A stretch of 25,234 nt of DNA from a virus (taxonomy: Duplodnaviria > Caudoviricetes), in the IMG/VR virus record IMGVR_UViG_3300033076_001042, positions 1-25,234 of that record; one strand, written 5' to 3'. This document shows positions 2,294 to 22,682 of this stretch, in pieces. The notes beneath the pieces were generated by a model. It was not told the origin of the DNA. It saw nothing but the letters and a program-made list of their open reading frames with translations, and made no database searches. Each line of letters starts with the position of its first letter. The stretch's first letter is position 1. Made by a program: the position numbers and the translations under genes.

Positions 2294-2427
2294 CCAAGGA
2301 CGAGCAGGAGCGATTCGAGGAGCGCGCGGCCATCCTGGAGTACGATGCGGGGTACACGCGCGAGGAGGCCGAGAGGCTGGCGCGCGAGATGGTGAAGCAA
2401 CAACCGAAACCGAAGGAGTGCAGATGA
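2290..2427 (+). CDS. Small helical phage protein (45 aa)
   Basis: MTKDEQERFEERAAILEYDAGYTREEAERLAREM carries the FEERAAI-EYD-G-x-R-EAE motif that recurs in phage and prophage proteins. ATGA overlaps at both ends. Confidence 0.75.
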   Translation: MTKDEQERFEERAAILEYDAGYTREEAERLAREMVKQQPKPKECR

Positions 2428-3701
2428 TTGCCGCCCTATTTCTCGCCCTCGTGCCTCAAGACGTGCTCGTCATCGTGGGCGACGACCTCGGGTTGTCCGA
2501 GCGCCACCTGATGCCTGCGCTCGACGAGATCGCCACGCGCGGCGTCACGTTCACGCGCGCCTACTCGTTCCCGGTGTGCTCGCCCACGCGCTACGCCTCG
2601 CTCTCGGGGCGCTACCCACGCCGCGCCGGCATCGGCGACGTGGTGAACGCGCACAACTCGGCGACGGGTGCGAGTCCTGCGCCGGATCGCCTGACCGTCA
2701 TGCTGCCCGAGGCGCTCAAGCCCACGCACGAGACGGCTCTGTTCGGCAAGTGGCACCTGGGACGGGCCTCGATGGGCTCGAGGGTAGACCTCCTCGCGCT
2801 CACCGAGTCCGGCCCGTTCGTCTCCGGCTTCGACAACTGGCTCGCCGGCAACCCAAACAGCATCGCTCAAGGGCCGGGTGCAACCGGGTACTACGACTGG
2901 TACCGAGTCGACAACTCCCAGGTCACGCAGGGCGCGACCGCCTACGCGACGCACGCGCAACGCGACGCCTTCATCGGCTGGTGGAACTCGACGCCGGGAC
3001 AGAAGTTCGGATGGCTGGCGTTCAACTCGGCGCATCAACCGTTCGATCCGCCGCCCGGGCGCACGCCGACCGGCACCGTGCGCGGCGACTACGAGCAACT
3101 CGTGGTCGATCTCGACGACGCGCTGCAAGCCGTGCTCGCTGCCGTGGACCTCTCGACCACCTGGGTCGTCTACGTCGGCGACAACGGCACGCCCGACGAC
3201 GCGCGTCCCGTGGGCACGCCGAGCGGCTTCTGGAAAGGCACCTGCTACGAGGGCGGCGTGCGCGTCCCGCTCATCGTCAGCGGGCCAGGTGTGACGAGCG
3301 GCATCTGCTCCGACCGGCTGGTGTCCGTGCTCGACATCTCGCCGACGCTGCTCGAGGTGCTCGAGGTCCAGTCGCGCGGCTTCGACGACGGGCGCTCCTT
3401 CGCCGACGAGCTCGGCGCGTGGACCGGCCAGCCTGAGCGCGCGTTCGTGTTCACCGAGCGGTACGACACGCCTGCGGCGAACCCGAGCGTGGGCTACGAC
3501 GACCAGGCCGTGATCGAGGCGTGCTGGAAGCTGCGGCGCGTGGACGTGGACGGGCCGGGCGCGGCGCCCAGCGTGGACAGCGCCTACTACCTACCCAACG
3601 ACCCCTACGAGCAGAACCCCATCGACCCGGCCTTGCTTCCGCCGGGCCTGCACGCAAGGCTGTACGGAGAACTGGCCTCCGTCCCTACCCGATTACCATG
3701 A
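2424..3701 (+). CDS. Formylglycine-dependent (S1 family) sulfatase with N-terminal signal-like peptide (425 aa)
   Basis: Motifs VLVIVGDDLG, CSPTRYASLSGRY (CxPxR, Cys codon at 2577), GKWHLG, AHQP, GDNG, KGTCYEGGVRVPLIV, DISPTLL, DGRSF and NDPYEQN. AAGGAG RBS and ATGA overlap at 2424. Confidence 0.93.
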   Translation: MIAALFLALVPQDVLVIVGDDLGLSERHLMPALDEIATRGVTFTRAYSFPVCSPTRYASLSGRYPRRAGIGDVVNAHNSATGASPAPDRLTVMLPEALKPTHETALFGKWHLGRASMGSRVDLLALTESGPFVSGFDNWLAGNPNSIAQGPGATGYYDWYRVDNSQVTQGATAYATHAQRDAFIGWWNSTPGQKFGWLAFNSAHQPFDPPPGRTPTGTVRGDYEQLVVDLDDALQAVLAAVDLSTTWVVYVGDNGTPDDARPVGTPSGFWKGTCYEGGVRVPLIVSGPGVTSGICSDRLVSVLDISPTLLEVLEVQSRGFDDGRSFADELGAWTGQPERAFVFTERYDTPAANPSVGYDDQAVIEACWKLRRVDVDGPGAAPSVDSAYYLPNDPYEQNPIDPALLPPGLHARLYGELASVPTRLP

Positions 3702-4036
3702 AGAAGATCGCCTTCACCGCGTCCTACGTCGCTGCCTGCATCGCCCTGTGCGTGTGCGTGCTCTCGGCTTGCATCGCCAACCCGCGCAAGGCCGAGGCTC
3801 ACCGCGAACTCGTGGAGGAAGTCACGAAGCAACTCCTCGATGCCGGGGTCGTGCCCACGGCCGAACAGCTCGAGCGGCTGGACAAGCGCATCGCTTCCGT
3901 CGAGAGCGAGCCCGACAACGTGCTTCCCCAGTGGGCCGAGCTGCCGGCCGCCGTGCTGGCGTCGATGGTCGGCGTGAAGACGCTGCCGTCGCGCTGGTTC
4001 CAAGGTCCGTTCGACCGAACGACCCCTACTGCTTGA
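3698..4036 (+). CDS. Lipoprotein (112 aa), possibly spanin-like
   Basis: MKK + hydrophobic core + lipobox LSAC (Cys25), a helical middle and a hydrophobic segment near the C-terminus. ATGA overlap with the sulfatase stop. Confidence 0.7.
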   Translation: MKKIAFTASYVAACIALCVCVLSACIANPRKAEAHRELVEEVTKQLLDAGVVPTAEQLERLDKRIASVESEPDNVLPQWAELPAAVLASMVGVKTLPSRWFQGPFDRTTPTA

Positions 4037-4403
4037 TCTGGCGCGGCCTCGCGCCTCCGAGCTGATCGGGGCCGCCCTTGGTGAAGATCGACAACGGTTG
4101 CACCTCGGGCGGCTTCAATCGCTTCTCCTCCCATCGCACGACCTTGCCGTCCGAGCGCGTGACGGCGCACTTCGTCAACGGGCCAAGCACCGCGTCGCGG
4201 ATCTCGCCGGGTGTCGGCGGCTGGTTCCCCGAATGGTTGCGCACGACGTAGGAGACGCCGAGCTCGAGCTGCTCGATGGTCAGGTCGGACAGCGCGTCGT
4301 CCCACACGCTGATCCGCAACGTGGTCGGCTCGAACCACGTCCAGATGGTCGACATCGTGGCGAACGCCTGGCCCCAGAAGAACTTGCGCTTCTCGTCGAT
4401 CAC
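4026..4403 (-). CDS. Putative replicative helicase loader/inhibitor-like protein (125 aa)
   Basis: VWDDALSDLTIEQLELGV...PPTPGEIR matches the W..L.DL..E......PT.aEIR pattern of phage loader-type proteins (SPP1 G39P-like) found downstream of replication initiators. Confidence 0.6.
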   Translation of the reverse strand: MIDEKRKFFWGQAFATMSTIWTWFEPTTLRISVWDDALSDLTIEQLELGVSYVVRNHSGNQPPTPGEIRDAVLGPLTKCAVTRSDGKVVRWEEKRLKPPEVQPLSIFTKGGPDQLGGARPRQIKQ

Positions 4404-4651
4404 TTCGTCCCCTCGTCGTGGATGGTGTGGAGCTCGGCGGAGAGCTGGTCGAGGATTGCCAGGGCTTCCGTCAAGTCCTCGGACATGGGCGCCGTGCGGC
4501 GCGCTTCCCAGTCCTGCTTGATGAAGCCCTCGACGCGGGCGAGCGTGATGGCAAGTTCTTCGAGGATCGCGTAGGTGCGCGACGCTTTGCCGAGGTTCTC
4601 CGCCGCCATCGCTATCGCGGCGTTCATGGCGTTGATTCGATGCTTGCTCAC
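4400..4651 (-). CDS. Hypothetical helical protein (83 aa)
   Basis: GGAGG RBS before GTG 4651, with GTGA overlaps on both sides. Sequence MSKHRINAMNAAIAMAAENLGK... Confidence 0.7.
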   Translation of the reverse strand: MSKHRINAMNAAIAMAAENLGKASRTYAILEELAITLARVEGFIKQDWEARRTAPMSEDLTEALAILDQLSAELHTIHDEGTK

Positions 4652-5013
4652 AGAGCCTCCATCGCGGCGCGCAGGCTGGCGAGGTTGCGCTCGTCCCGCG
4701 TCATCGGACGAACGTCGACCTTGAGGTTGTTCCAGCGCGTGTAGACCAAGCGAGGGGACGCTTCCTGCGCGTGCCACGCCGAGGGCGGGTTCGTCAGCAG
4801 GCGCTTCACGGCCTCTGCCCACGCCTCCAGCGATCCAGCGGTCTGCAAGCCGAGCTTGATGAACTTGTGGTCGATGGGGGTCAGGTCCCATCTCACGCCC
4901 CGCGTCTCGTACCACAGCCGGCACCAGACGCGCATCGCGTCAACGTGCGGGCCGGACGGAGCAGGACGGGGCTTCTTCCTGTTGGACGCATCGCCAAACA
5001 AGGATCCTTGCAT
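4648..5013 (-). CDS. Hypothetical protein (121 aa), resembles the C-terminal domain of phage replication initiators
   Basis: AGGAGG RBS. Trp-rich helical protein ending SPRLVYTRWNNL, located upstream of the loader-like gene. Confidence 0.6.
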   Translation of the reverse strand: MQGSLFGDASNRKKPRPAPSGPHVDAMRVWCRLWYETRGVRWDLTPIDHKFIKLGLQTAGSLEAWAEAVKRLLTNPPSAWHAQEASPRLVYTRWNNLKVDVRPMTRDERNLASLRAAMEAL

Positions 5014-5046
5014 CAGGGCCTCCTAGGGGTTGCGCGAGGAAAGCCC

Positions 5047-5075
5047 TTGGAAAAAGCTCCGCAGGGAGGTACCTT
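5047..5075 (+). promoter_or_regulatory. Sigma70-like promoter
   Basis: TTGGAA(5047-52)-N17-TACCTT(5070-75). Confidence 0.45.
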
Positions 5076-5080
5076 TCCTT

Positions 5081-5174
5081 CGCGTATCGCATGACGCGGC
5101 CATCTGAACCTTCACGGGTTCGACGGTCAAGGCCCGGATCGCTCGAGCAGGGGAGATCCGGGCCTTTCTTCTTT
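5081..5174 (+). ncRNA. Candidate ~90-nt small RNA or attenuated leader
   Basis: Bounded by the promoter at 5047-5075 and the terminator at 5129-5174. Contains hairpins CGCGT..ACGCG (5081-5098) and GAACC..GGTTC (5106-5121). Confidence 0.4.
5129..5174 (+). terminator. Rho-independent terminator
   Basis: AAGGCCCGGATC-N14-GATCCGGGCCTT stem running into TTTCTTCTTT. Confidence 0.7.
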
Positions 5175-5199
5175 CGACCCAAGGGCTTACGCTGCGCCC

Positions 5200-6429
5200 G
5201 TGCTCGTACGCAGACTCACGAAGCCTCCGGGCTTCCGGCAGCAAGAAGAAGGCGAGAGCGACGCCTCGTACTTCTTCTTCCTCTACGGCAACGAGAAGGG
5301 CGTCCTCGGCGTGCGCCCTGGCTACCGCTACTCGATGCGTCGCCGTGAGTGGATCGAGAAATGCGTCTGCATCGTCGACAAGCAGACCGGAACGTCCGTC
5401 CCGTTCAAGCTGAACGAGGCGCAGAGGCTTCTCGAGGCCGAGATCCTTCGCTGTGAGCGACGCGGCGAGCCCATCCGCGTGTCGGTCTTGAAGGCTCGCC
5501 AGCAGGGCATCTCCACCTACGTCACGGCGCTCCTGCTGTGGCTGATGCTGACCAACCGTGGGTTCCGCGCGATCCTGATGGGGCACAAGCGGGACTCGGC
5601 CACCGTCCTGCGCGGCCGGCTCAAGGACATGCTGCAAGGCTTGCGGCGCAACGAACGCGACCGCTGGAAGCTCGAGCCCAAGTCGAACCAGACGAAGCAG
5701 CTCGTCCTCGACGCTCCGCAGGAGTCGGCCGCCATCATCGAATCGGCGGAAGGCCCGGATTACCGGGGCGACACGATGCGCTTCTTCCATTGCATCGAGC
5801 CGGCCGAGTGGCCCAACGCCGAAGCCAAGGCGAACGCCGTCTCGAAGTCGATCCCGAAGGCCCCGGGGACCTACGTCATCATCGAGGGCACGGCTCACGG
5901 CGACACCAATTGGTTCGCCAAGACGTGGCGGGCCGCCTGGCGCATCCAGAGCTACGAGGAGTCGCACCTCGGTGTGCCGTGGAAGGCGCTGTTCTTCCCG
6001 TGGTACATCCACGACAGGTACCGCTGGTCCGTCGTCATGCGCCGCCCGGTGCCGCAGAAGCTCAAGGACGAGATCATGCGCACCCTCGACGACGAGGAGC
6101 GCCGCCTGCTCCGGCAGAGCTACATCCGGCGCGGCGTCGGGCGCGTCAAGGTCGACCTCGATCAACTCGCCTGGCGCCGGTACACGATCCAGGAAGACTG
6201 CCAGAACATGGTGGAGTTCTTCCACCAGGAGTACCCCGCCTTTCCCGAGGAGGCGTTCCTCTCCACGGGCATGAAGTTCTACTCGGCCAAGTTGCTCGCC
6301 GAGAAGAAGGAGAAGGAGGCCGAAAAGGGCGTGTTCAGGGGCGAAATCGTCGACCCCGATGGCGAGCGCATGATGAACCGCACGCTCTCCGACATCGAAG
6401 CCGAGGAGACATCCGGTGTGGCGTGGTGA
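5200..6429 (+). CDS. terL: Terminase large subunit, ATPase domain gene (409 aa; start uncertain)
   Basis: VPFKLNEAQ (adenine-binding), VLKARQQGISTY (Walker A), RFFHCIEPAEW (Walker B), IIEGTAHG (coupling motif), ALFFPWY and FHQEYPAFPEEAF. Confidence 0.9.
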   Translation: MLVRRLTKPPGFRQQEEGESDASYFFFLYGNEKGVLGVRPGYRYSMRRREWIEKCVCIVDKQTGTSVPFKLNEAQRLLEAEILRCERRGEPIRVSVLKARQQGISTYVTALLLWLMLTNRGFRAILMGHKRDSATVLRGRLKDMLQGLRRNERDRWKLEPKSNQTKQLVLDAPQESAAIIESAEGPDYRGDTMRFFHCIEPAEWPNAEAKANAVSKSIPKAPGTYVIIEGTAHGDTNWFAKTWRAAWRIQSYEESHLGVPWKALFFPWYIHDRYRWSVVMRRPVPQKLKDEIMRTLDDEERRLLRQSYIRRGVGRVKVDLDQLAWRRYTIQEDCQNMVEFFHQEYPAFPEEAFLSTGMKFYSAKLLAEKKEKEAEKGVFRGEIVDPDGERMMNRTLSDIEAEETSGVAW

Positions 6430-7153
6430 ACTCCAAGAGGCCGCGTACGGCGACCTGACCATCTACGAGCATCCGCAGCCGGATCTCCAGTACGCCGTTG
6501 CGGTCGACACCTCGAGCGGACTCCGCACCTCGAAGGATCGCGGCGACCCCTCGTGCGCCCAGGTGATCGAGATGCGCACTTGTCGGCAGGTTGCCGAGAT
6601 GCACGGCTACCGGGAGCCTACCCAGTGGGGGTATGCCAGCGCCCGGCTGGCCGGGTACTACAACCTGGCCCCCCTCGCCATCGAGACGCACCCTTCCCAG
6701 CACGGGCTGGCCGCCTTCATTGCCGCCGAGCGGTACGGCTACCCCAAGCTCTACATGCAGCGCCGGGTCGAATCCAAGACCGGAGCGATCAGCGAACGCC
6801 GGGGGTGGGTGCGCAGCGCCGGCTCAACCTACGCCATGCACGACCGGATCCGGGAAGCCCTGTCCGAAGGGTGCATCATCCGGTCCCAGCGGCTCCTGGA
6901 CGAGCTCTCGGCCATGCGCTACGAGGATGGCAAGTTCGTCTCTGACGACCACGACGACACCATCATCGCCTACGGAATCGCCCTGCTCCTGCGCGACCAG
7001 GCGTTCCGGCTCGGCATCGTGAAGCCGGAGGAGAAAAGGCCCCTGGATGTTGCGGATCAGTTCTGGGCTCGGCAGTCTCAGGTACAGGCTGTCTCTTCCC
7101 CCAGCCTGGAACTCGACGAACGTGAGCTCAATGGAGTCTGGAATGGTGTCTAG
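6416..7153 (+). CDS. terL: Terminase large subunit, RNase H-like nuclease domain gene (245 aa)
   Basis: GDLTIYEHP..YAVAVDTSSG, DPSCAQV, LAIETHP and HDDTIIAYGIAL. Has its own GAGGAG RBS (6403-6408) 7 nt before GTG 6416, in the +1 frame relative to the ATPase gene. Confidence 0.88.
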   Translation: MWRGELQEAAYGDLTIYEHPQPDLQYAVAVDTSSGLRTSKDRGDPSCAQVIEMRTCRQVAEMHGYREPTQWGYASARLAGYYNLAPLAIETHPSQHGLAAFIAAERYGYPKLYMQRRVESKTGAISERRGWVRSAGSTYAMHDRIREALSEGCIIRSQRLLDELSAMRYEDGKFVSDDHDDTIIAYGIALLLRDQAFRLGIVKPEEKRPLDVADQFWARQSQVQAVSSPSLELDERELNGVWNGV

Positions 7154-7427
7154 CGTGGTGATCTCGGTGGCGATCACGAGCCTTGTCTGGCTCGGCGTCG
7201 TCCTCATCGTGACGAGCAACTACGCCAGCATCGTTCGCCGGCTGATGGACTCCAACCGCGAGGTGATGCGGAACACCTGGGCCGAGCGCACGGCCCTTGA
7301 GGGTAAGTCGGTAGCCGCTGGCGATCTTGTCCAAGCGTCTGCGCACGCGGCCAGCCTCGTCGAGCGGCACAAGGAAGCACAGCGAAGCGCCGCCCTCTCT
7401 ACCGATGACCACCTCCTCGGGCTCTGA
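7143..7427 (+). CDS. Small membrane-anchored protein (94 aa)
   Basis: GGAG RBS, N-terminal TM VVISVAITSLVWLGVVLIVT, and TGATG coupling to the portal gene. Confidence 0.7.
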   Translation: MVSSVVISVAITSLVWLGVVLIVTSNYASIVRRLMDSNREVMRNTWAERTALEGKSVAAGDLVQASAHAASLVERHKEAQRSAALSTDDHLLGL

Positions 7428-9553
7428 TGGCAAGCAAGCACTTCAAGATCTCGGACGATGAGGCGTCGCAGCGGGTAGACAAGCTGGTCACGCTCGAGGG
7501 GCGGTCGTCGCACCGCTACCCGTTCGAGAAGACGGCGCTCAGGAACCGGCTCTACTTCCTCGGGAAGCACTGGTTCATCGAGGACAACGCCAGCGGCTTC
7601 TTCCGCGAGCCCCGGATCGTCGGCTCGAACCGGGTTCTCTACAAGGCGAACCTGCTCCTCGGCAACGTTTTGCGCTCGATGCTCACCATCGCGGGCGCGG
7701 CCGGCGACTTCACGGTCCCGCCGGCCAAGAACACGCGCGACGCGAAGAAGGCCAGTTGGACGGCGACCAAGCTGTTCGAGCACCTCTCCTACACGGTTGG
7801 GATGCGCGAACTCGACCAGCTCGCGTGCCTCATGGCGGCGCTCGACGGGTCGGTGATCTGGAAAGTCTACTGGGACCCGGACATCGGCGAGCCGGTGCGC
7901 TTCTACTACCCTGACTACGCCGAGGGGAAGGCGGTCGCCGCGCTCTCCGAGCCGGAGATGCGTGAGCTCGAGAGCGAGGGCAAGTACCGCGACGAGCGCC
8001 GTGGAGACGTGCGCGTCGAACTCAAGAGCATCTTCGAGATGTGGTGGGACTGGAAGGCGCGTGATCGCGGCTTCCGTGACGCCGAGTGGGCGTGCGAGGT
8101 GTCTCTCGTCTCGCGTGACTGGGCGCGCGACGTGTACGGGAAGAAGATCGACGACATCCCCGCGTCGGACGGCAAGGAAGGCTCGCTCTACTACAACGAG
8201 CTGATCTCGTTCATGTCCGGGCAGTTCGGCGCCAGCGCCGACATGCAGAAGGTCGCGCCCGAAGAGTCGGACGAGAAGATCCTCATGCGCGTGCTGTGGG
8301 AGGTGCCGCGCCCGTCCAACGGCATGATGGGGCGCTACATCGTCAAGGCGGAGAACACCGTGCTCGAGAACCGGGACAACCCGAACCGAGCTACCGACTT
8401 CGCGCTGCCCTTCGTGCGGCAGAACTGGATCACGTGCCCTGGCCGCTTCTGGGGCATCTCGCTTGCCGAGAACATGACCAGCGCCCAGCACCAGTACAAC
8501 GTGGCGCGCTCGAAGAAGATCCAGCACCAGAACGTGTACGGCCAGCCGATGACGTTCATCCCGGAGAGCTGGAACGTGCCCGAGGATGTCGTCTCGCTGG
8601 AGCCCGGCGCGATCCGTCGCTACAACGCCGCTGGCGGCGGAGACATGAAGCAAGGCCCCGTGCCGATGCTTCCCAAGGAGGTCAACGAGAACGCTGCCGA
8701 GGCTCGAGCCGAGATGGCCGAGATCAGCTCTCAGCAGTCCATCGACAACTCGAAGCTGCCCGGCCAGATCCGCTCTGCCTCGGGCCTCGAAGCGTTCATG
8801 GACGAGCGGAACAAGATGCTGATTCACCCCGCCGAGAACTTCCTTCTCTCGAAGGAGCAGGTCGGCCAGCACATGCTCGCGCTCGCCCACAAGAACTACC
8901 CCGACGACCGGATCGTCCACTACGTCGGCGAAGACCGGAAGTGGCGGGCGCTGCACCTCCGCCGCGTCGACATCAAGACCGACCTGCGCGTGATGATCGA
9001 CCGGAGCAAGATGCTCCAGTCTCCCGGCACGGTGAAGGCGCGCACGATGGAGATGCTCCAGCTCGGCGCGTTGAACCCGGCGGACCCCGACGAGCGCGAG
9101 GCGATCCTCAAGGCGATGGAGTTCCAGATCGCCGACGAACTCGTGGGTGATCGACTCGTCGAGGAGGAGAACCAGGAGCGCGAGATCGAGGAGATGCTCG
9201 CGGACCCGACAGCGTGGATCCAGCCGCGCGCTGACATGATGGCTCCGCAAGAGTCGTGGCAGGTCGACGAGATGACCGGCCAGCCGAAGCCGCCCATCGT
9301 GCAGGGCTACCCGATCAACCCCTTCGATGACCACCGGATCCACGCCAAGGTGTGTGTCCGGTTCATGCGCTCGGAGGAGTTCCGTGAACTCGACCCCATC
9401 AGCCAGTCCCTCGTGATGATGCACCACCAGGCCCACGAGGCCAAGGTGCAGGAGGAGATGATGCGAGAGCTGATGATGCAGCAAGCAATGCAGGGCGCCC
9501 CAGGCCAACCGGGCGCTCCTTCCAAGGCCAAGCAACCTACGCCAGCCCTATGA
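7427..9553 (+). CDS. Portal protein (708 aa)
   Basis: Position after the terminase, size, and motifs GSVIWKVYWDP, LPFV..PGRFWG.S, Q.QYN, EPGAIRRY, EISSQ and SASGL. Ends in an M/Q-rich helical C-terminus. Confidence 0.88.
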   Translation: MASKHFKISDDEASQRVDKLVTLEGRSSHRYPFEKTALRNRLYFLGKHWFIEDNASGFFREPRIVGSNRVLYKANLLLGNVLRSMLTIAGAAGDFTVPPAKNTRDAKKASWTATKLFEHLSYTVGMRELDQLACLMAALDGSVIWKVYWDPDIGEPVRFYYPDYAEGKAVAALSEPEMRELESEGKYRDERRGDVRVELKSIFEMWWDWKARDRGFRDAEWACEVSLVSRDWARDVYGKKIDDIPASDGKEGSLYYNELISFMSGQFGASADMQKVAPEESDEKILMRVLWEVPRPSNGMMGRYIVKAENTVLENRDNPNRATDFALPFVRQNWITCPGRFWGISLAENMTSAQHQYNVARSKKIQHQNVYGQPMTFIPESWNVPEDVVSLEPGAIRRYNAAGGGDMKQGPVPMLPKEVNENAAEARAEMAEISSQQSIDNSKLPGQIRSASGLEAFMDERNKMLIHPAENFLLSKEQVGQHMLALAHKNYPDDRIVHYVGEDRKWRALHLRRVDIKTDLRVMIDRSKMLQSPGTVKARTMEMLQLGALNPADPDEREAILKAMEFQIADELVGDRLVEEENQEREIEEMLADPTAWIQPRADMMAPQESWQVDEMTGQPKPPIVQGYPINPFDDHRIHAKVCVRFMRSEEFRELDPISQSLVMMHHQAHEAKVQEEMMRELMMQQAMQGAPGQPGAPSKAKQPTPAL

Positions 9554-11103: not shown

Positions 11104-12522
11104 ATGCCGATCACTGGTAGCGGCCTCGGGACCACTTGGTCCTCGGCTGCGGAAGGCTTCCTGACCGCACTGGTCACGGACGACTACAAGAACCGACTCA
11201 ACGACGCGCGGAATAACTCCGTGCCCATCCTGTCCCTCATCCCCTCGACGAGCGAGCGGGTGTCGGGCAAATACATCGTGGAACCCGTCATGTTCGGGCG
11301 CAACCCGAACGCCTTTTCGTACGTCCGTGAAGGTGGCCGTCTGCCGGACCCCGGCACGACCTCCGCGCGTTCGTACTTCTACCGCTGGCGTACGAGCTTC
11401 GCGCGTCTCAAGTTCGACGGCACGATCCTTCGCGCCACGAACAAGGACGACGTGCGGTTCATCGACGTGATCGAGCGGGACTTCGAGGCGCTCGCCGCCG
11501 ACATGGCGGTTGACCAGGCTCGCATCCTCTACAACGACGGCTCGGGCCGCCTTGCGGAGTACGTGAGCACGGTGTCGGGTACCCAGATCAAGATTCGCCT
11601 GAATCAGAGCTGGGAATCCGTGGCGACGTGTTCGAGTTCGCCGGCTCAGTTCCTCACTCCGGGGATGCGCTTTGCCGTGATGTCGAACGCTGGCGCTCTG
11701 CGCGGCGTGCGCACGATCACGAGCATTGACGCCGAGACGCTCGGCCCGCCCTCGGAAGCCACGATCACGCACGACGGCACCGCCGTTGGCTCGATCACGG
11801 CTGGCGACTGGCTGGTCAAGGTCGGCGACAGCACGGACGGCACGGGTGCGGTCACGACCCAGGCGTCCATCAACACCGCCTACCGCGCGGAGCCGATGGG
11901 CCTCATGGGCATCCTGTCCGACGACGGTGTGCTCGACGGCAACGGCGTGTCGACCCTCTCCGGTCTGACGTACGTGGGCGCGGACGACTACACGTCCACG
12001 TCTTCGACGACGTTCCAGGGGATGCCGACGACTGGCTCGAACTACGACTTCAACCGCGCAATCGTGATGACGGGCGGTGGCACGTTGCGGGCTCTCAACG
12101 AGGGCCTTCTCCAGCTCGCCATGTCGAAGATCGAGAAGACCAACAACGGCAAGATCGACATGCTCCTGTCGAACTACGGGCCGCGCGATGCGTACGGCAT
12201 CGGGCTCCTGCCGCAGAAGCAGTACGTCAACACGACGGACTTCAAGACGGGTTGGAAGATGCTCGAGTGGAACGGCGTCCCGTGGTACGTGGACCGCAAC
12301 TGCCCGGAGAACCGGGTTCTGCTCCTCGGCCTCGAGGGCGGCGGCTTCGTGCAGCACGTGAACACCCCGTTCCAGCCTCTCAACCCGTACGGCCCGCACT
12401 GGATGCGCCTGCAAGACTCGGACGAGTACCAGGTGCCCTACGTGATGGCTGGCAACATCGGTGTCGGCATCCGCAACCGTTGCGGCGGCCAACTGACGGA
12501 CCTCATCTCGCTCTCGGCCTGA
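11104..12522 (+). CDS. Major capsid protein (472 aa), HK97-type fold with insertion domain
   Basis: AGGAG RBS. Motifs GKYIVEPVMFGRN, EGGRLP, RILYNDGSGRLA, MGLMGI and GWKMLEWNGVPWYVDRNCP. Synteny and a downstream hairpin agree. Confidence 0.9.
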   Translation: MPITGSGLGTTWSSAAEGFLTALVTDDYKNRLNDARNNSVPILSLIPSTSERVSGKYIVEPVMFGRNPNAFSYVREGGRLPDPGTTSARSYFYRWRTSFARLKFDGTILRATNKDDVRFIDVIERDFEALAADMAVDQARILYNDGSGRLAEYVSTVSGTQIKIRLNQSWESVATCSSSPAQFLTPGMRFAVMSNAGALRGVRTITSIDAETLGPPSEATITHDGTAVGSITAGDWLVKVGDSTDGTGAVTTQASINTAYRAEPMGLMGILSDDGVLDGNGVSTLSGLTYVGADDYTSTSSTTFQGMPTTGSNYDFNRAIVMTGGGTLRALNEGLLQLAMSKIEKTNNGKIDMLLSNYGPRDAYGIGLLPQKQYVNTTDFKTGWKMLEWNGVPWYVDRNCPENRVLLLGLEGGGFVQHVNTPFQPLNPYGPHWMRLQDSDEYQVPYVMAGNIGVGIRNRCGGQLTDLISLSA

Positions 12523-14984: not shown

Positions 14985-17900
14985 ATGGCGACCAAGCGTT
15001 ATCCGCTCAAGCCGCTATCGGGCGGCGTCAAGACGGGCTTCCCGCCGTCGCTCCTCTCGGACGGCCAGACCCCGTTTGCGGAGAACGTCGAGTTCGCCAA
15101 CGAGTCGATCAAGACGCCGCGCGGTAGCCGCAAGGTCAACAACCAGACGCTCCTTCGCCCCGCGCTGCGCTGCCAGCCGGACCCCGGCTACTCGCCGCTC
15201 TACGTCGAAGCCGGGAAGTCTGTCCCGCTGCGGGGCTACGTCTACCTGCCGTACGATTCCGTCCACGATGTCGGCGGAGACTTCGCCGGCACTTCGGGCT
15301 CGTTCCCTACCGAGACGTTCCACAACCGGCGCGGGCGCTCCTTCGAGCTCCAGGTCAGCGTTCGCATCCCGGAGACGTTCAGGATGCAAGACCGCCCGGC
15401 TCGAGGCGAGGGCGTGCCCACGTCCGAGAACGCGCAGATCACGGCGGACTGCGGGTACGACGAGGGGCTCGACGACTGCACCGTCATCTTGCAGAAGGGC
15501 GGCGACCGCACCGCTCCGATGAGCTGGGCCATCGGGCTCGTCTGCGCGGGCAACTACGCGCACACCAGCGGCGTCGGGACGGCCAAGCCGCGCAAGAGCA
15601 ACTACTTCCTCACCTTCATGTGGCTCGACGCGCCCGAGTGGGGCGTGGGCGATCCCGCGAAGATGCGCTACGACCTTGGCACCTACGCGAACAACGCGAC
15701 GGGCGCCTACTCGACGCAGGCTCTCCGCGCCTTCATCCTCGATGGCAAGGACGACTCGTCGATGGCCTACGCCGTCGAGCCGGGTCGCACGTACTCAATC
15801 TCCGTGTCAGTCACGCTGGACTCGCTGACGGGCGGAACGACCTGGGCGCACAACGGGCGCGTCGACGTGCGGATGCGCGAGGAGAACGGCTCGCTGATGA
15901 CGGGCAGCTTCGTCGACTCCGGTGGTGGCGGCACCGCGACGAACCTCTCGATCTTCAAGGGACCGACCGACTCGCTGCGCTACCTCGCCAAGTTCGGCGT
16001 GCGCTACTCGGGCCGCGACGCGATGTACCTCGGGCTCGGGTACCGCACCGCGCCGTGGGAGGCGATGGGCTGGATCCCGTACGGATTCGACTCGGCGGCG
16101 ATGGAGCACAAGGGGTTCCGCATGGCGGACATGACCCTGAACTCCACGGCGGACCTCTACGGCGGTCTGACGTACGGGCTGACCTCGACGCACCCCGTCG
16201 CGGGCAATGCCTACCTCTCGGTAGTTCGCGCCCTGGTAGACGGTGGCGGCAGCGTTGGTGGATGGGGGAAGTCGGTACTCGGGCCGCGCAACGCCGCATG
16301 GGCCGGCTACGGCGGCAACACTGGCGCGGGGACCTCGACGGCGTTCAACTCGGAGGCCCTGCGCGGGTACCGCGTGGTGTTCCCTCGTTCGGCAGACGTG
16401 ACGATGAACGCGCTCCGTGGCGGGCGCATGACCATCGAGACGTACGTCGAGCAGGCGTCCGGCGACTACCGCCTGACCGTCACGAACCTCGCCAGCCTCG
16501 GCGTGACCTGGGCCGGCGCACAGCCGTTCATGGTTCAGGCGTTCCGCTGGAACCAGCAGGCCATCGACGTGCAAGACCTCCGCGTCTGGTCTTCGTCACG
16601 CGACTACACGAATGCTCGCGTCCAGTGGTCGCTCGGGCACTCGCTTGAGCTCGACGACGAGACGGAGCCTGAACTCTCGAAGCTCCAGGCTTACTGGCCC
16701 ATCGCGGACGCCGGGTCGCGCTACTGCGAGGAAGTGGTGCGCGGGCTTCACGGGTTCCTGGCCCCGTTCGGGATGGGGCTGGCTCCGCTTGGTGAGCGCG
16801 GAGATGACGCGCTGTTCCTGTCCGGCGAGGGCGAGGCTCTGACCTTCGACCTGTCGGAGAACCCGGTCTTTGCGCGCGAGATGCGTGCGATGCAGCAGTC
16901 GAACACGCGCGGGTTCGCCATCGAGCTGACGTGCATCATCCCGCAGGCGTTCTACGGCGTGTCGACCAACACTCCGTCCGGCACGCGCGGCAGCGAGTAC
17001 GAAGCGGCGTACTGCCCGGATCTCGTCACATGGTCGGCCAAGGGCGCCGATGAGGTGCGCGGTGCCGATCAAGCCATGCCGCTCCTCGTGATGGGGCACC
17101 ATTCCTGGTGGTCGACCGCCACGGGAACCACGCCTGAGCGGCGCCCGCAAGGGTTCCACGTCGACTACCACGGCACGCTCGACTCGGACAGCCCTGTGAT
17201 GACGACGGCGGTCGTCGGCTTCTCGCGTTCGGCGGGTGGCGCCGGCCTGTGGGACGACACCGCGCCGTGGGTCGGCAAGCGCATCACGATCCAGGTCGGC
17301 GTGCATCCTTCGCCGGCCAACCGTGCTGGCACCGCTGGGAAGCAGAACGAGTACCGCGTCTACATCGCGGCGACACCCAAGGGCGTGCTCAAGTACGCCG
17401 CTGGCGAGAACCCGCAAGCGGAGTTTGCCTACTGGGCGGAGAAGGCGATCCAGAAGAAGGATCTTGAGCGCCTGGTCGTCACCATCGGTGGTGGATGGAA
17501 CCCTTCGTCGGTGCGCGGCTACACCGAGTATTCGGCCCCGCTGATCGTGGACGAAGTTCGCATCTACGGTGCGACCGCTTCGGGCGATCTACCCTCGACA
17601 TCCGGCAACGTCACGACGGAGAAGCGCGGCAAGATCCTCGGGCGCGACGCGCTCCCGCAACGGGTGCTCACGAACGACGACTTCCTGCGCCCGCTCGGTG
17701 TCGGCTCCAGGGCTGCCGGATTCACCGAGGGCTCGGCCACGATCACGGCTCCTGGCGGGAGTTCCTTCTTCGGGCAGACGCCGGAGTCGGCGCTGAACGC
17801 TTTGCGTGAGCGGTTCGTGATCCCGCTCTCCGACAAGTACCAGAAGCCGGATGTCGATGGGCTGTCGGTCGAGCTCCAGGAGTTCTACTGGGTGTCGGCT

Positions 17901-20900
17901 GTAGCGTCCGATGGGCTGTCGGCAACGCTGGCGACGCCGTACACGGGGCCGGAGTCGGCTCGAGCGGCGGCGGCTGCGACGAACCTCATCGGCTACACGA
18001 CGTTCGCCAACGCTGCGGAGGAGCTGATCCAAGCTCCGCTGACGCTGGGTGCTGGCTCCACGTTCAAGCCGGGAACGACGAGAACGAAGGATCTCGTGCT
18101 CTCCGGCGACCTCTTTCCGAACAAGACTCCGGTGGACGGGCGTTGGCGTGCGCGCGTGGCTTCGCCGTTCACGTCGGGAGGTCTTTCGACGGTGCTTCCC
18201 CGCTGGGTGCGAGGCGTTGTGTCTCCCCGGCGAACCCCGGTCACGGGGATCACGGCCATTGACGATGTGCCTATCGCCACGACGCGCGGAGCGATCTTCC
18301 GCGTCGACGACCGCTGGCGCGAAGATGGCCCGACCGATGCGCTGCGTAAGTCTCTCGCCGTCCTCGGCCGCAAGCAGGAAAGCTGGACGGTGCCGCTTGC
18401 GCAGGACGGTGTGCGGTTCACCTCGTACTCGAACGTGTGGCCGTACTGGAGCACGGCGATCTACCAGGACTTCACCTGGGTCTACGACGCCTGGGTGTGG
18501 ATCGAGGAGTACGCAGAGTACCAGACGATCATGTGGCTGGGCTGCGAGCAGGCCCACCTACTCCTTGGGCCGGCCGCAAACGACAACCGGCGAGGTATCG
18601 GTCTGTGGCTGCGCCTGAACAACGGGCGCCCCGAGCTGGTGCGCGAAAGCCAAGGCAACTTCTCTGGTGGAGCAACGACGCCTCCTGATGGCCGGTACAC
18701 GGCGACGGCTTCTGATCGCGTCCCGCTCAAGAAGTGGACGCACCTTCGCGTGTACCTCGCGCACTACCAGAGTGGCGGAACGCAGATCCTCAAGAAGCCC
18801 GCATGGAAGATCAACGGGCGCGCATCGACGACGACGGTCAACGCCGTGGAGACGGGGTTGGCTGGCGCGGATGACTGGATCCAGTCGAACAACGGTGGCG
18901 GACTGATCGGTACGGCTGGAGACAGCCGCAACGTCCTATACCTTGGAGTTGGGCGCGACGCGATACGCACCCTTGGGAAAGCGCAGTTCACCGCAGTCAA
19001 CGTGCTCGGTGGACAAGAGTTCCCGGGAAGCCGCATCGCGGGGCGTCTACATCCGCTGCTTGGACGGATTGCCGGTGCTGTCGTGTGGCGCGCTGCTTCG
19101 GCGGATTCTTCCGTGAGCGGCTTCCCGGACTTTGACCCGTACACGCTCGACTACACGGGTCGACTCGTGCGCTTCCGTGCCGACATGCAAGAGGGGATCG
19201 GCGAGCTGATCTCCGATACGGGGACGGACACGACCGGCGGCGTTGCACAGACTGTTCCTGGCCTCGTGCTGTCGCATCCCGGCATCGACCTCTACAACGA
19301 GTTCGGGCGATCCGAGCAAGCCCCCAGCTTCGCATCGGCGGGCCAGCGTGTTTACGCGGCCAACGGCGGGCGAGTCGCTCAGGTCACGGAGCGGTCTGGA
19401 GGTCCTGCTGGCGTGACGGCCGCGACGACGACGGCTCGGTTCGAGGTGGAGCGCAAGCCACTGTGGAAGTCGAACTTCGCCCCGAGCGGAAGCACGTCAG
19501 GCGAGACTGATCCTATCCGTCAGGCGACGACCGGCTCGGGCCAGCAAATCTACCACTACGCCTCGTACGGCAACTCCTACGTGCGCCAGAAGTGGCATGA
19601 GGAGCTGCGCTGGTCCAAGGATGAAGCGGCGACGAACGACCCGTTCGACGTGTTCGGCTGCAAGTTCTACTGGAAGCCGCACGATGTTTCGGGAACGATC
19701 CCGCTGTGGAGCTCGCGCCTCTCTCGAGACTCGGGCTCAATCTTCCTGGAGTCCGTCGACGGCAAGCCCCGCGTCGGCTGGTGGGATGTCGCTCTCAAGA
19801 AGCAGGTCTACGTCACGCTGTCCGGCCAGGTGTTCCGGCCCGGCTACTGGTACTACGTGGCGCTGCGCAAGTCCTTCCCGATGCAGGACACGCAGGAGGG
19901 CAACTGGCTCAACACCTTCTGGTGCAACGGGCGCAGGCGACGCGCAACGTTCACGCTGACGGGCACGTGGAACGTCGGCGATGTGGTCCGCAACGCGGGC
20001 ACGACGAAGCGCGGACTCATCACGAAGGTCTACTCCGGACGCATCGAGTACGTTCTGTTCGACACGGATACCGACTTCACGTCTGGTGAGGCCGTTGTCG
20101 ACAACGAGACTGGGGCCACGGGAACGATCACGTCCACGCCGCACCAGACGATGGGCGACCTGCTCGTGGTGCGCGAGTTCCAGAAGTCTGCCCCGTCGCT
20201 CCAGGACATCCCTCTGCTCGCAGCCCAGGCGACCGACCGCTCCGCGATCAGCTTCACATGTGCGTTCCCGACCTCCACGAACACGACTGGCATCGGCCAG
20301 GTCACGCCGAAGGGTGCGCTGTTCTCGGGCGCCATCGGCGGCGTCGTCACGGCGGGCACGATGGTGGGTCGCGCCAACGCGCTGCGCCTGTTCACGAACG
20401 ACATGGTGGGGATGTATTTCCAGTTCGCCGGATCCCCGGCGGAGAAGGTCTACAAGATCGCGCTGGTCACGTCGAATACTCAGATCACGGTAGTTGACGA
20501 GTTCGGTGCCACGCCCAACCTGGCCTCCAAGACGAACGTCGGCGGGGCCGTATTCTGCGGGCACACGCTCATCAAGTCGCCGGAGTTCGATCAGTCGAAC
20601 GCTCCGGACCAGGCGGCGTATGACGTGGAGTTCATGGGCACGTCGCTGGCGAGCGATCCGACGCAAGGCTACGCGCGACACAACGGAGAGTTCGCCTCCT
20701 TCGCGTGGGGCGTCGTCTCATCCGAAGTCTCGACCTCGGCGTTCTACTCGGGGTTCAACCTCTTCGAGAGCGCCACGCCAACCGAGCTATCCGAGATGGG
20801 GGCCGACACGTTCGCCTCTACCATCTACAGCTCCTCGTCTCGTCCCGGCGAGCTTCGCGTGGATACTTCGCGCTGCTTCCTGTGCGTGGACACCCAGGTC

Positions 20901-22682
20901 TACGCTGGCGGCACGGCGGCAAGTTCACAGCCGAACGCGGCGCTCACTATCACGAAGGACACCGAGTCCAGCACGAACGCCGAGAACCCCCAGTGGCGGT
21001 ACATCACTCCGCCGCAACAGGCCGGCGGCAAGCGTCACCTCTACGTCGTCTTCTACGACCCCGAGCAGAACGAGCGGTCTGGCCCGGGCGAGCGCCTGAC
21101 GATCACGGTGCCAGAGGAAGACCATTCGAACCCGAGTGGCCTGACGCGCTTCCTCCTGACGGACATCCCCGTCAGCCACCAGCGCGGTGTCCAGCGATGG
21201 GTCTACATCACCGAGGCCGACTCGGAGGTTCCGTTCCGCGCTGCGATCATCCCGGACAACACGGCCGGCTCGATCTCGCTCGAGCTGAACGACGACCTCC
21301 TCGACTTCCAAGACGAACTCGACGTGGACACCGATGCGCCCCCGCGCTGCTCGGTCGTCGGCGCTTCGCAGGGTGTGATGTTCTACGGCGACGTGGAAGT
21401 CTCCGGCGTTCGCGCTCGGGATCTCCTGTTCTTCTCGAAGCTCGGCCGTCCGGTGAGCGTTCCGCCCAGCCGGTTCCTATCGCTGATCTCGGGGTCAAAC
21501 GAGCGCATCACGGCGATGGCGTCGCTCAACGGCGTGCTCCTCGTCTTCAAGAAGGACGCGATGCTCGAAGTTGTCGTAAGCGGCGACCTTGCGGCGCAGA
21601 ACGGCAAGAGCCAGGACTACGGGTGCGTGGGCGCGCAGGCCATCGCCGTGCTCGACCAGCGGTGCTACTGGCTGTCGCATGACCGTGGGTTCTACGTGTA
21701 CGCCGGGGCCGGCGGCGCGACGTGGCTTGGTGCCAACGTGGCGGATCTGTTCGAGGGCGACAACGAAGACGGACTCGTCGTCGACGGGCGCTACTTGAGC
21801 CGTTCGGTGCTGGCGGTCAACCGCCGGCAGAATCAGGTCGTGGCGCTCTGGAAGAACTCCTCGGAGCGTGCGCCGCGTCGCCGCATGACCATCGAGTACG
21901 ACTCCGGCCTGTCGGGCCAAGGCGTTCCCGGCGATCCCTCGAGCGGCTTCCGGTACGCGCTATACAGCGGTCCCTCGCTCACGGCCATCGGCTCCGTGGA
22001 CAGCACGATCCCCGGAGCGCAACGTCTTCTCGGTGGAACCGAAGACGGCTTCATCGTACACCTAGATCGCGTCGGGCCGGAGGTGGATCTCCAACCGTCC
22101 ACCCTCACCCAAACAGCGGCTCTCACCTCTGGCTCGACAACCTCCAAGCTCGTCATGTCGAGCTCGCCGGCGAACCTGGCGCTGCTCGAGGGCGTGCGCG
22201 GCGTCCCGGTTCACTGGAACGGTGGACTCGGCGTGGCGCTGTTCGTCGATGGCGCGAACGTCCACCTCGACCGTGCGGTGTCTTCCGCGCCGGCCACGGG
22301 CACGTCCATCGTGTTCGGTGGCCGCACTGTTGAGTGGCGCTCGAAGTGGCTTGACTTCGGGATCCCGGAACAGCGGAAGCTCCTGGAGTGGCTGCACATC
22401 CAGACCGTCGCGCAGTCGAGCGGTACGGCGTACCTCGAGGCGTACACGGTCGGGCTGCCCTCCGGCGTGGTCGAGGGGCCGAAGACCTTGGTGCTCGGCG
22501 GCACGCCGTACACGCAGGTTCCGCTCGACCTGACGAAGACCCTGCATCGGATCCCGCTGGGCGAGCTCCGGCAGTTCCAGTACGTCCAGTTCCGCATCAA
22601 GACGGTCCATCCGGCCAGCGATACGCGCATCGAGGTCATCGACCTGTCGGTGTCGGTCAACGAGACGGATCAGCGCCCATGA
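14985..22682 (+). CDS. Giant tail nozzle / DNA-stabilisation protein (P22 gp10 / tubular protein B-like) with LamG-like insertions (2565 aa)
   Basis: Nozzle-type N-terminus (LSGGV...AENVEF..SIKTPRG), propeller blades (LLFFSKLGRP, ITAMASLNGVLLVFKKD, YGCVGAQAI..CYWLS) and C-terminus (WRSKWLDFGIPEQRK...YVQFRI). Internal LamG-like motifs LQAYWP, VDEVRIY, WTHLRV and GYWYYVAL. Confidence 0.8.
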   Translation: MATKRYPLKPLSGGVKTGFPPSLLSDGQTPFAENVEFANESIKTPRGSRKVNNQTLLRPALRCQPDPGYSPLYVEAGKSVPLRGYVYLPYDSVHDVGGDFAGTSGSFPTETFHNRRGRSFELQVSVRIPETFRMQDRPARGEGVPTSENAQITADCGYDEGLDDCTVILQKGGDRTAPMSWAIGLVCAGNYAHTSGVGTAKPRKSNYFLTFMWLDAPEWGVGDPAKMRYDLGTYANNATGAYSTQALRAFILDGKDDSSMAYAVEPGRTYSISVSVTLDSLTGGTTWAHNGRVDVRMREENGSLMTGSFVDSGGGGTATNLSIFKGPTDSLRYLAKFGVRYSGRDAMYLGLGYRTAPWEAMGWIPYGFDSAAMEHKGFRMADMTLNSTADLYGGLTYGLTSTHPVAGNAYLSVVRALVDGGGSVGGWGKSVLGPRNAAWAGYGGNTGAGTSTAFNSEALRGYRVVFPRSADVTMNALRGGRMTIETYVEQASGDYRLTVTNLASLGVTWAGAQPFMVQAFRWNQQAIDVQDLRVWSSSRDYTNARVQWSLGHSLELDDETEPELSKLQAYWPIADAGSRYCEEVVRGLHGFLAPFGMGLAPLGERGDDALFLSGEGEALTFDLSENPVFAREMRAMQQSNTRGFAIELTCIIPQAFYGVSTNTPSGTRGSEYEAAYCPDLVTWSAKGADEVRGADQAMPLLVMGHHSWWSTATGTTPERRPQGFHVDYHGTLDSDSPVMTTAVVGFSRSAGGAGLWDDTAPWVGKRITIQVGVHPSPANRAGTAGKQNEYRVYIAATPKGVLKYAAGENPQAEFAYWAEKAIQKKDLERLVVTIGGGWNPSSVRGYTEYSAPLIVDEVRIYGATASGDLPSTSGNVTTEKRGKILGRDALPQRVLTNDDFLRPLGVGSRAAGFTEGSATITAPGGSSFFGQTPESALNALRERFVIPLSDKYQKPDVDGLSVELQEFYWVSAVASDGLSATLATPYTGPESARAAAAATNLIGYTTFANAAEELIQAPLTLGAGSTFKPGTTRTKDLVLSGDLFPNKTPVDGRWRARVASPFTSGGLSTVLPRWVRGVVSPRRTPVTGITAIDDVPIATTRGAIFRVDDRWREDGPTDALRKSLAVLGRKQESWTVPLAQDGVRFTSYSNVWPYWSTAIYQDFTWVYDAWVWIEEYAEYQTIMWLGCEQAHLLLGPAANDNRRGIGLWLRLNNGRPELVRESQGNFSGGATTPPDGRYTATASDRVPLKKWTHLRVYLAHYQSGGTQILKKPAWKINGRASTTTVNAVETGLAGADDWIQSNNGGGLIGTAGDSRNVLYLGVGRDAIRTLGKAQFTAVNVLGGQEFPGSRIAGRLHPLLGRIAGAVVWRAASADSSVSGFPDFDPYTLDYTGRLVRFRADMQEGIGELISDTGTDTTGGVAQTVPGLVLSHPGIDLYNEFGRSEQAPSFASAGQRVYAANGGRVAQVTERSGGPAGVTAATTTARFEVERKPLWKSNFAPSGSTSGETDPIRQATTGSGQQIYHYASYGNSYVRQKWHEELRWSKDEAATNDPFDVFGCKFYWKPHDVSGTIPLWSSRLSRDSGSIFLESVDGKPRVGWWDVALKKQVYVTLSGQVFRPGYWYYVALRKSFPMQDTQEGNWLNTFWCNGRRRRATFTLTGTWNVGDVVRNAGTTKRGLITKVYSGRIEYVLFDTDTDFTSGEAVVDNETGATGTITSTPHQTMGDLLVVREFQKSAPSLQDIPLLAAQATDRSAISFTCAFPTSTNTTGIGQVTPKGALFSGAIGGVVTAGTMVGRANALRLFTNDMVGMYFQFAGSPAEKVYKIALVTSNTQITVVDEFGATPNLASKTNVGGAVFCGHTLIKSPEFDQSNAPDQAAYDVEFMGTSLASDPTQGYARHNGEFASFAWGVVSSEVSTSAFYSGFNLFESATPTELSEMGADTFASTIYSSSSRPGELRVDTSRCFLCVDTQVYAGGTAASSQPNAALTITKDTESSTNAENPQWRYITPPQQAGGKRHLYVVFYDPEQNERSGPGERLTITVPEEDHSNPSGLTRFLLTDIPVSHQRGVQRWVYITEADSEVPFRAAIIPDNTAGSISLELNDDLLDFQDELDVDTDAPPRCSVVGASQGVMFYGDVEVSGVRARDLLFFSKLGRPVSVPPSRFLSLISGSNERITAMASLNGVLLVFKKDAMLEVVVSGDLAAQNGKSQDYGCVGAQAIAVLDQRCYWLSHDRGFYVYAGAGGATWLGANVADLFEGDNEDGLVVDGRYLSRSVLAVNRRQNQVVALWKNSSERAPRRRMTIEYDSGLSGQGVPGDPSSGFRYALYSGPSLTAIGSVDSTIPGAQRLLGGTEDGFIVHLDRVGPEVDLQPSTLTQTAALTSGSTTSKLVMSSSPANLALLEGVRGVPVHWNGGLGVALFVDGANVHLDRAVSSAPATGTSIVFGGRTVEWRSKWLDFGIPEQRKLLEWLHIQTVAQSSGTAYLEAYTVGLPSGVVEGPKTLVLGGTPYTQVPLDLTKTLHRIPLGELRQFQYVQFRIKTVHPASDTRIEVIDLSVSVNETDQRP

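Follow-up and report, generated by a model that had tools for sequence, protein, structure and literature searches.

A phage large terminase encoded as two overlapping genes, one for the ATPase and one for the nuclease

Introduction

The large terminase (TerL) is the textbook two-domain, one-chain motor of DNA packaging. Here we analyse a viral stretch in which its two domains lie on two genes: positions 1 to 25,234 of IMG/VR virus record IMGVR_UViG_3300033076_001042 (Duplodnaviria; Caudoviricetes), a linear, metagenome-derived contig of 25,234 bases and about 49% completeness, referred to in its entirety as the window. Its terL locus consists of an ATPase gene and a nuclease gene that overlap in different reading frames. 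We put at about 0.8 the probability that terL is here two separate, overlapping, conserved genes whose products are predicted to assemble non-covalently into a packaging motor. The comparisons below confirm that this two-gene large terminase is real and conserved, a known enzyme in a new arrangement.

Among described terminases, those of the T4 gp17 type (structures 3cpe, 3ezk and 2o0j; RB49 nuclease 3c6h/3c6a) resemble the window in both folds and in the ATPase-first, nuclease-second order beside the portal gene. T4 gp17 is one chain, however, whereas in the window the ATPase chain ends at the hinge point and a second gene begins; identity is below 20%. Closer in sequence are fused terminases of the same family (clusters P0022 and P0024, and 227 of 246 related loci), with an ATPase 38-39% and a nuclease 41% identical to those of the window. 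Like the window, these fused forms have the RGxL strand, the G-x-L-x-I-W-E-x-P strand and acidic positions of the DTS/IET/HDD type, but they are encoded in one open reading frame (ORF) and, unlike the split ATPases, have no MM-x-TL-x-x-hE tail after the RGxL strand.

A packaging ATPase without a nuclease domain is known from phi29, whose gp16 serves phages that package protein-primed unit genomes and do not need a terminase nuclease. The window ATPase is likewise a stand-alone packaging ATPase but, unlike in phi29, packaging ATPases of this kind invariably have a cognate nuclease gene next to them or a short distance away. A search of the full-text literature, outside subscription journals and supplements, found no natural terminase whose two domains are translated separately from genes split at the domain boundary. 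Group I introns or inteins do split terminases in the Jug phages (PMC12880540), Staphylococcus phage Twort (PMC13729910) and cyanophage Mic1 (inteins; PMC7156551), and there too the terL coding sequence spans more than one ORF. In these phages the element is spliced out of RNA or protein and one chain results, whereas the window has no intervening sequence and is cut at the domain boundary.

Results

The terminase locus comprises the following features.

5200..6429, plus strand: TerL ATPase gene, 409 amino acids (aa), stop TGA at 6427-6429 (ORF listing)
6416..7153, plus strand: TerL nuclease gene, 245 aa, start GTG at 6416, +1 frame relative to the ATPase gene (ORF listing)
6416..6429, plus strand: ATPase/nuclease overlap of 14 nucleotides (nt), from GTG 6416 to the ATPase TGA at 6427-6429
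6403..6408, plus strand: Shine-Dalgarno-like GAGGAG, 7 nt 5' of the nuclease GTG 6416

This layout, with an ATPase stop at 6429 and a GTG at 6416 in the +1 frame behind its own GAGGAG, reproduces the coordinates of a preliminary description of the same DNA. In place of the canonical one-polypeptide TerL architecture there are two ORFs in different frames, and the same is found in 20 ATPase and 18 nuclease clusters. The nuclease frame is limited upstream by TGA TGA at 6371-6376, and from there to the conserved nuclease N-terminus GTG 6416 is the sole ATG, GTG or TTG. Because the two ORFs overlap, an intron, intein or homing endonuclease has no room, in agreement with the preliminary description; Pfam revealed no intein or endonuclease domain in either ORF and an Rfam scan of the whole window gave 0 matches. 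Its placement of the break at the inter-domain linker also holds, since alignment to fused homologues locates the break in a short stretch of beta-strands that separates the ATPase lid from the initial nuclease strands. Folding of the RNA at 6270-6450, across the junction, is unremarkable (z-score −0.08), and a tRNA scan found 0 genes.

A survey of homologues for the same split, proposed in the preliminary description, showed that the nearest relatives share it. An ATPase homologue search gave 422 matches at E <= 1e-5, and among the best 120, which were listed, the 20 best non-self clusters (P0002-P0021, drawn from Logan, NCBI, JGI and ENA) are ATPase-only in 20 of 20 cases, with lengths of 379-474 aa and identities of 36-75%. 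The split ATPases terminate 16-37 residues past a conserved [WF]-x-G-[DE]-x strand, and the first fused relatives in the ranking are P0022 (664 aa, 39%) and P0024 (632 aa, 38%). Stand-alone nuclease relatives form 18 non-self clusters (237-251 aa, 39-76% identity), all of which begin within a few residues of an R-G-x-L motif. Eight ATPase/nuclease pairs are found on contigs of identical nt size and one pair was located on the same 51,641-nt JGI contig; across the relatives, ATPase and nuclease identities to the window track each other. Where the source annotation names these split relatives at all, it calls them 'hypothetical protein'.

An exhaustive profile-free search of 1.84 billion representatives with the nuclease gave 1890 matches at E <= 0.001 and 24 at E <= 1e-30. 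Nineteen of the latter are 234-304 aa long, and the other five (636-1070 aa) match at their C-terminal end. Proteins of at most 310 aa account for 37 of the best 50 matches and for 73 of the best 150, in which a further 73 exceed 470 aa and 4 lie between, the short proteins including some fragments. A nuclease search limited to longer proteins scored 0 of 3415 candidates and is weak evidence, as it missed the known fused P0022 and P0024 too. As a separate observation, a nuclease relative lies at the C-terminal end of four very long proteins that far exceed normal terminase size: P0167 (1070 aa), P0208 (966 aa), P0246 (940 aa) and P0255 (1346 aa).

The reading frames at the junction are intact in other assemblies. 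Logan contigs of four runs (X1-X4) from three studies were compared with the window over 5900-6900; X1 may be the source sample and therefore does not count as independent support. No indel was found in 6330-6440 in the X1-X4 contigs, so that the check proposed for this interval, made here on assembled contigs, gave no indel that would restore one frame. A single X2 contig covers the whole of 5900-6900 with 11 other letters and 0 gaps. All listed substitutions were translated in both frames. In X2, 10 of 10 are synonymous in the frame of the local ORF; in X4, the ATPase region has 15 synonymous substitutions out of 18, and after position 6430 all 16 are synonymous when read in the nuclease frame. 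Read in the ATPase frame, these same 16 substitutions are without exception non-synonymous, and one of them is a stop. The selected reading frame therefore switches exactly at the junction, and purifying selection acts on each gene in the frame of that gene.

The first of the two ORFs matches phrog_2, 'terminase large subunit', in PHROG (E 3.2e-9). In tblastn searches of 50,697 phage records it matches the N-terminal parts of mostly large-terminase-annotated genes in 196 records, and the second ORF matches the C-terminal parts of such genes in 123 records, identities for both being 25-30% and every match below 31%. The best cultured-phage matches of the two halves differ (Vibrio, Pseudomonas F116-like and Burkholderia phages for the ATPase; Stx-converting and related Escherichia phages for the nuclease), which may mean nothing at 25-30% identity.

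An AlphaFold model of the ATPase, built from an alignment of relatives, has a predicted local distance difference test score (pLDDT) of 84, and Foldseek places the T4 gp17 ATPase domain 2o0j first among PDB entries (E 4.1e-11). The top matches (2o0j, 2o0h, 3cpe, 4znk, 8dgc_E, 5oea_B and 6z6d; E 4e-11 to 1e-6) point to an ASCE P-loop fold like that of the gp17, P74-26 and HK97 TerL N-domains. Three segments of the chain are used below.

5488..5517, plus strand: LKARQQGIST, ATPase residues 97-106; L97, K98, R100, Q101, G103, S105 and T106 invariant in 21 ATPases
5782..5799, plus strand: FFHCIE strand; H197 and E200 invariant in 21 ATPases
6331..6426, plus strand: ATPase C-terminal tail, residues 378-409; F/W-R-G-E/D strand, then DP-x-GE-x-x-MM-x-TL-x-x-hE

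We take LKARQQGIST to be a deviant Walker-A-like P-loop; it is without the classical GK[ST] lysine and follows the pattern K98-x-R100-Q101-x-G103-x-S105-T106. FFHCIE is presumably the Walker-B-like strand, with Glu200 as the likely catalytic residue, and E229-x-T231 is also invariant among the 21 ATPases. In the alignment the tail peptide MM-x-TL-x-x-hE is conserved among split ATPases and missing from fused relatives. The tail is poorly modelled: blocks in 351-409 have pLDDT 51-69, and residues 356-362 and 377-383 fall below 50.

In PHROG the nuclease ORF aligns with the C-terminal half of phrog_38407 (E 4.7e-8), a family that has no name. Its AlphaFold model, again from an alignment of relatives, has pLDDT 80, with residues 1-12 below 50. 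The best PDB matches are T4 gp17 3ezk_A (E 1.5e-8) and 3cpe (E 4e-8), ahead of the nuclease domains of RB49, G20c and P74-26; the Foldseek list as a whole (3ezk_A, 3cpe, 3c6h, 5m1f, 5tge, 4iox_A and 4dkw_A; E 1.5e-8 to 1e-2) is that expected of the predicted RNase-H/RuvC-like fold of TerL C-domains. Conserved features of this chain are as follows.

6506..6508, plus strand: Asp31 (AVAVDTSSG), the first invariant acidic residue; D31, T32, S33, S34 and G35 invariant in 17 nucleases
6683..6685, plus strand: Glu90 (AIETHPS); I89, E90 and T91 invariant in 17 nucleases
6953..6958, plus strand: Asp180-Asp181 (HDD); H179, D180 and D181 invariant in 17 nucleases
7136..7150, plus strand: C-terminal tip VWNGV (aromatic-x-G-hydrophobic); W242 and G244 invariant in 17 nucleases

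By analogy with the TerL nuclease family, Asp31, Glu90 and Asp180-Asp181 are putative catalytic, metal-binding acidic residues, and the invariant residues of ATPase and nuclease alike appear to fit an active enzyme. VWNGV-like ends also occur in P0022, P0024 and three further related loci (L003, L004 and L005); the tip is thus kept in split and nearby fused forms, and we infer that it may be a portal-docking arm.

Hidden Markov models (HMMs) of the two halves were used to class 246 related loci, drawn from IMG/VR, JGI metagenomes and GTDB genomes. Among the matches listed, the IMG/VR scans (with the window ATPase, alignments of relatives, P0006, P0014 and P0017) gave no locus above 35% identity, nor did the genome scan; one close locus, L083 (52%), came from the metagenome scan. 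Two-ORF loci number 7 of the 246. Twelve more are without class, 8 that run off the locus end and 4 long ORFs whose C-terminal part was unmatched by the nuclease HMM, and 18 further loci comprise 13 fused and 5 without class. Of the seven two-ORF loci, six are divided at the domain boundary:

L083, ATPase identity 52%: 20-nt overlap, +1 frame, ATG start, GAGG 7 nt upstream
L164, ATPase identity 32%: 8-nt overlap, +1 frame, ATG start
L004, ATPase identity 34%: halves in the same frame, with three stops between
L005, ATPase identity 33%: ORF of about 70 aa (1059-1271) between the halves; ATGA overlap with the ATPase stop and GTGA with the nuclease start
L086, ATPase identity 30%: 52-aa ORF (about 3980-4140) between the halves; ATGA overlap with the ATPase stop
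L003, ATPase identity 35%: C5 DNA methylase gene at 4188-5765 (PF00145, E 3.3e-54) between the halves, overlapping both

The nuclease ATG of L086 is 2 nt past the TAA stop of its 52-aa ORF. The small ORF of L005 has no family match, and the small ORFs of L005 and L086 look unrelated. In the IMG/VR phage L003 the split site serves as an insertion point for an accessory gene. A single frameshift cannot join the halves of L003, L004, L005 or L086, and a programmed frameshift therefore cannot explain these loci. The seventh two-ORF locus, L045, has its frame break at about 1777-1901, inside the nuclease domain after the first catalytic Asp region; unlike the domain-boundary split, this break is probably an assembly error or a pseudogene.

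A short motif lies on both sides of the break in the window, as VFRGEI at ATPase residues 378-383 (6331-6348) and as WRGEL at nuclease residues 2-6 (6419-6433). The resemblance (W/F-R-G-E-L/I), first pointed out in the preliminary description, is real at the protein level and conserved in relatives: on the ATPase side G381 and D385 are invariant in 21 ATPases, and on the nuclease side R3 and G4 each reach at least 90% conservation across 17 nucleases. Fused relatives run through the junction in the order strand 1 ([WF]-x-G-x-[LI]), turn, strand 2, loop, G-x-L-x-I-[WY]-x-x-P and first catalytic Asp. The window-lineage ATPase retains strand 1 and the turn (DPxGE) and has an added helix-prone MM-x-TL-x-x-hE tail. 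The nuclease of this lineage starts (W)-R-G-x-L, and MAFFT puts this start on strand 1, whereas BLAST against fused P0024 puts the nuclease N-terminus on hairpin strand 2 and not on strand 1, which bears the ATPase-side motif. A DNA repeat was sought between the two RGE motif sites and none was found, and in the L003/L005 lineage the cut falls cleanly between strands 1 and 2 with the motif not repeated.

These results divide the earlier proposal of a fission with a small duplication rather than a single-base error. Gene fission at the inter-domain boundary, as opposed to a one-base error or an intron or intein split, is strongly supported by the variants, the split relatives and the other junction geometries. 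The small duplication was not borne out: given the missing DNA repeat, the BLAST pairing with strand 2 and the clean cut in L003/L005, a duplication of the motif is possible, not demonstrated. In the structural models the least confident residues are those at the two junction ends, which would fit segments that fold only on binding.

In a quick maximum-likelihood tree of 48 ATPase domains (29 scored as split by tail length, 19 fused, no rows dropped) the window falls in an all-split group of 19 rows. This group lies inside a clade of 28 rows with 26 split and 2 fused members, P0022 and P0024 (support 94 in the Shimodaira-Hasegawa-like approximate likelihood-ratio test, SH-aLRT). The whole tree needs at least 6 state changes, 4 of them forced by starred branches, and in an approximately unbiased (AU) test a single clade of the 26 split rows, a grouping chosen once the tree was known, is rejected (p 1.6e-5). 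From tree and AU test together it follows that the split or fused state did not change just once; either halves were re-fused or fission recurred.

Discussion

Could the window simply carry an ordinary one-chain terL broken by a one-base indel, as an assembly or sequencing artefact or a pseudogene? The source contig is metagenome-derived, linear and incomplete (about 49%), and L045 shows that a related IMG/VR locus does carry a frameshift inside the nuclease domain that resembles such an error. Against this, contigs from two other studies have the identical frame structure and no indel, the frame of synonymous substitutions switches at the junction, and four data sources agree on the split, with all 20 of the nearest ATPase clusters and 18 nuclease clusters showing it, so that we regard an artefact as having next to no chance of being correct. 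A programmed +1 ribosomal frameshift or transcriptional slippage near 6377-6429, which would yield an ordinary one-chain terminase and make the split only apparent, deserves slightly more attention, since the window and L083, the close-subclade members for which there is DNA, both have a short overlap and a nuclease in the +1 frame, as does L164. Yet the 56-nt zone available for a shift (6374-6429) contains no homopolymer run longer than 2 nt, and by reading, the overlaps of these three loci have no slippery motif in common. The nuclease also has a start with a Shine-Dalgarno-like site in the window (GTG) and in L083 (ATG, GAGG), and an ATG in L164; the stops of L004, the intervening ORFs of L005 and L086 and the methylase gene of L003 are unreadable by one shift; protein-level conservation of the ATPase tail continues past the motif as far as the ATPase stop; and nuclease N-termini all begin at the same place. 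We consider frameshifting or slippage very improbable.

The two-gene reading, to which we give the probability of about 0.8, has to be set against several observations that weigh the other way. Both halves lie in one ORF in 227 of the 246 loci, and the split is rare in the wider family. For most relatives split status refers to called protein lengths and ends, not to DNA; the window subclade is represented in DNA by two members, the window and L083, whose shared +1 overlap is compatible with a frameshifted fusion product. RNA runs were sought for the stretch and none was listed, Pfam gave 0 families at E <= 0.01 for the two terminase ORFs, and the Walker and catalytic labels are putative assignments.

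If there are two real chains, the nuclease could be a free, sub-stoichiometric accessory that visits an ATPase motor for the initiation and headful cuts, along the lines of the 'tunable stoichiometry' suggested in the preliminary description. Its own GTG start permits a different yield, both junction ends are flexible in the monomer models, and the genes between the halves in sister lineages mean that strict 1:1 coupling is not universal. The start/stop overlaps of the window, L083 and L164 speak indirectly for the opposite, as do the ATGA and GTGA overlaps of L005 and the ATGA overlap of L086, which fit coupled translation, and the C-terminal tip of the fused relatives that is kept on the nuclease chain; a free accessory nuclease is in our view unlikely. 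A bolder proposal holds that the motor is an obligate two-chain machine in which the hinge is dispensable and the junction sheet is rebuilt between chains by the clade-specific ATPase tail peptide and the first nuclease strand, that the fission was reversed or repeated several times in a single phage lineage, and that the gap is a landing site for accessory genes, a DNA methylase among them. This fuller scheme we put forward tentatively, as one that would sooner prove wrong than right in its entirety.

For the separate genes that we favour, expression might proceed as follows. The nuclease likely has its own translation start at GTG 6416, served by the GAGGAG inside the end of the ATPase gene, and initiation there is probably coupled to ATPase translation through the 14-nt overlap. 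Coupled expression would be favoured because of the start/stop overlap and because there is no promoter-like or terminator-like site between the ORFs (promoter-like sites were sought in 4800-7600, terminator-like sites between the ATPase and nuclease ORFs, and none was found). Together, the C-terminal tail of the ATPase and the N-terminal strand of the nuclease would restore the junction beta-sheet across the two chains, this inter-chain sheet replacing the covalent hinge and the ATPase tail serving as a tether. The nuclease chain, with its conserved C-terminal tip, would sit beside the portal as in one-chain terminases. In the HK97 motor the nuclease domains are reported to adjoin the portal (PMC10359639), and the conserved C-terminal arm of D6E TerL is proposed to contact it (PMC5727402). 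The nuclease may then be a stoichiometric motor part and not a freely tunable accessory, because the tip, if it is a portal-docking arm, would place the nuclease in the motor.

The hinge of T4 gp17, residues 354-364, is used in a translocation model in which the nuclease domain swings relative to the ATPase (PMC3074133). If the motor of the window is an obligate two-chain one, such hinge-dependent models fail for this motor family. Alternative models have translocation performed by the ATPase ring alone. A natural, selected lineage with separate domains offers a direct way to find out if the hinge is necessary, and allows one to ask how cutting is coupled to headful sensing without a hinge and which chain holds the portal. 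The 'hypothetical protein' labels and the Pfam misses also mean that TerL-based phage detection, completeness estimates and phylogenies would mishandle this clade.

Neighbouring genes and other observations

The terL locus sits in a head-packaging module beside the portal gene.

7427..9553, plus strand: portal protein gene (phrog_156 portal, E 6.8e-14; Pfam P22_portal, E 1.1e-7)
11104-12522: major head protein gene (family search)

In the gap between the nuclease and portal genes, a small ORF at about 7156-7427 on the plus strand has a hydrophobic, membrane-helix-like N-terminus and a stop that overlaps the portal ATG; translated from 7047, it gave no family match. About 1.5 kb upstream of the terminase genes, a 427-aa ORF (window 2418-3701, plus strand) carries a full-length sulfatase domain (PF00884, E 3.9e-30) and may represent either an auxiliary metabolic gene or flanking host DNA. 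The structural module includes a 2565-aa ORF (window 14985-22682, plus strand) with no Pfam match and a faint match to phrog_511, an internal virion protein family (E 7.8e-4).

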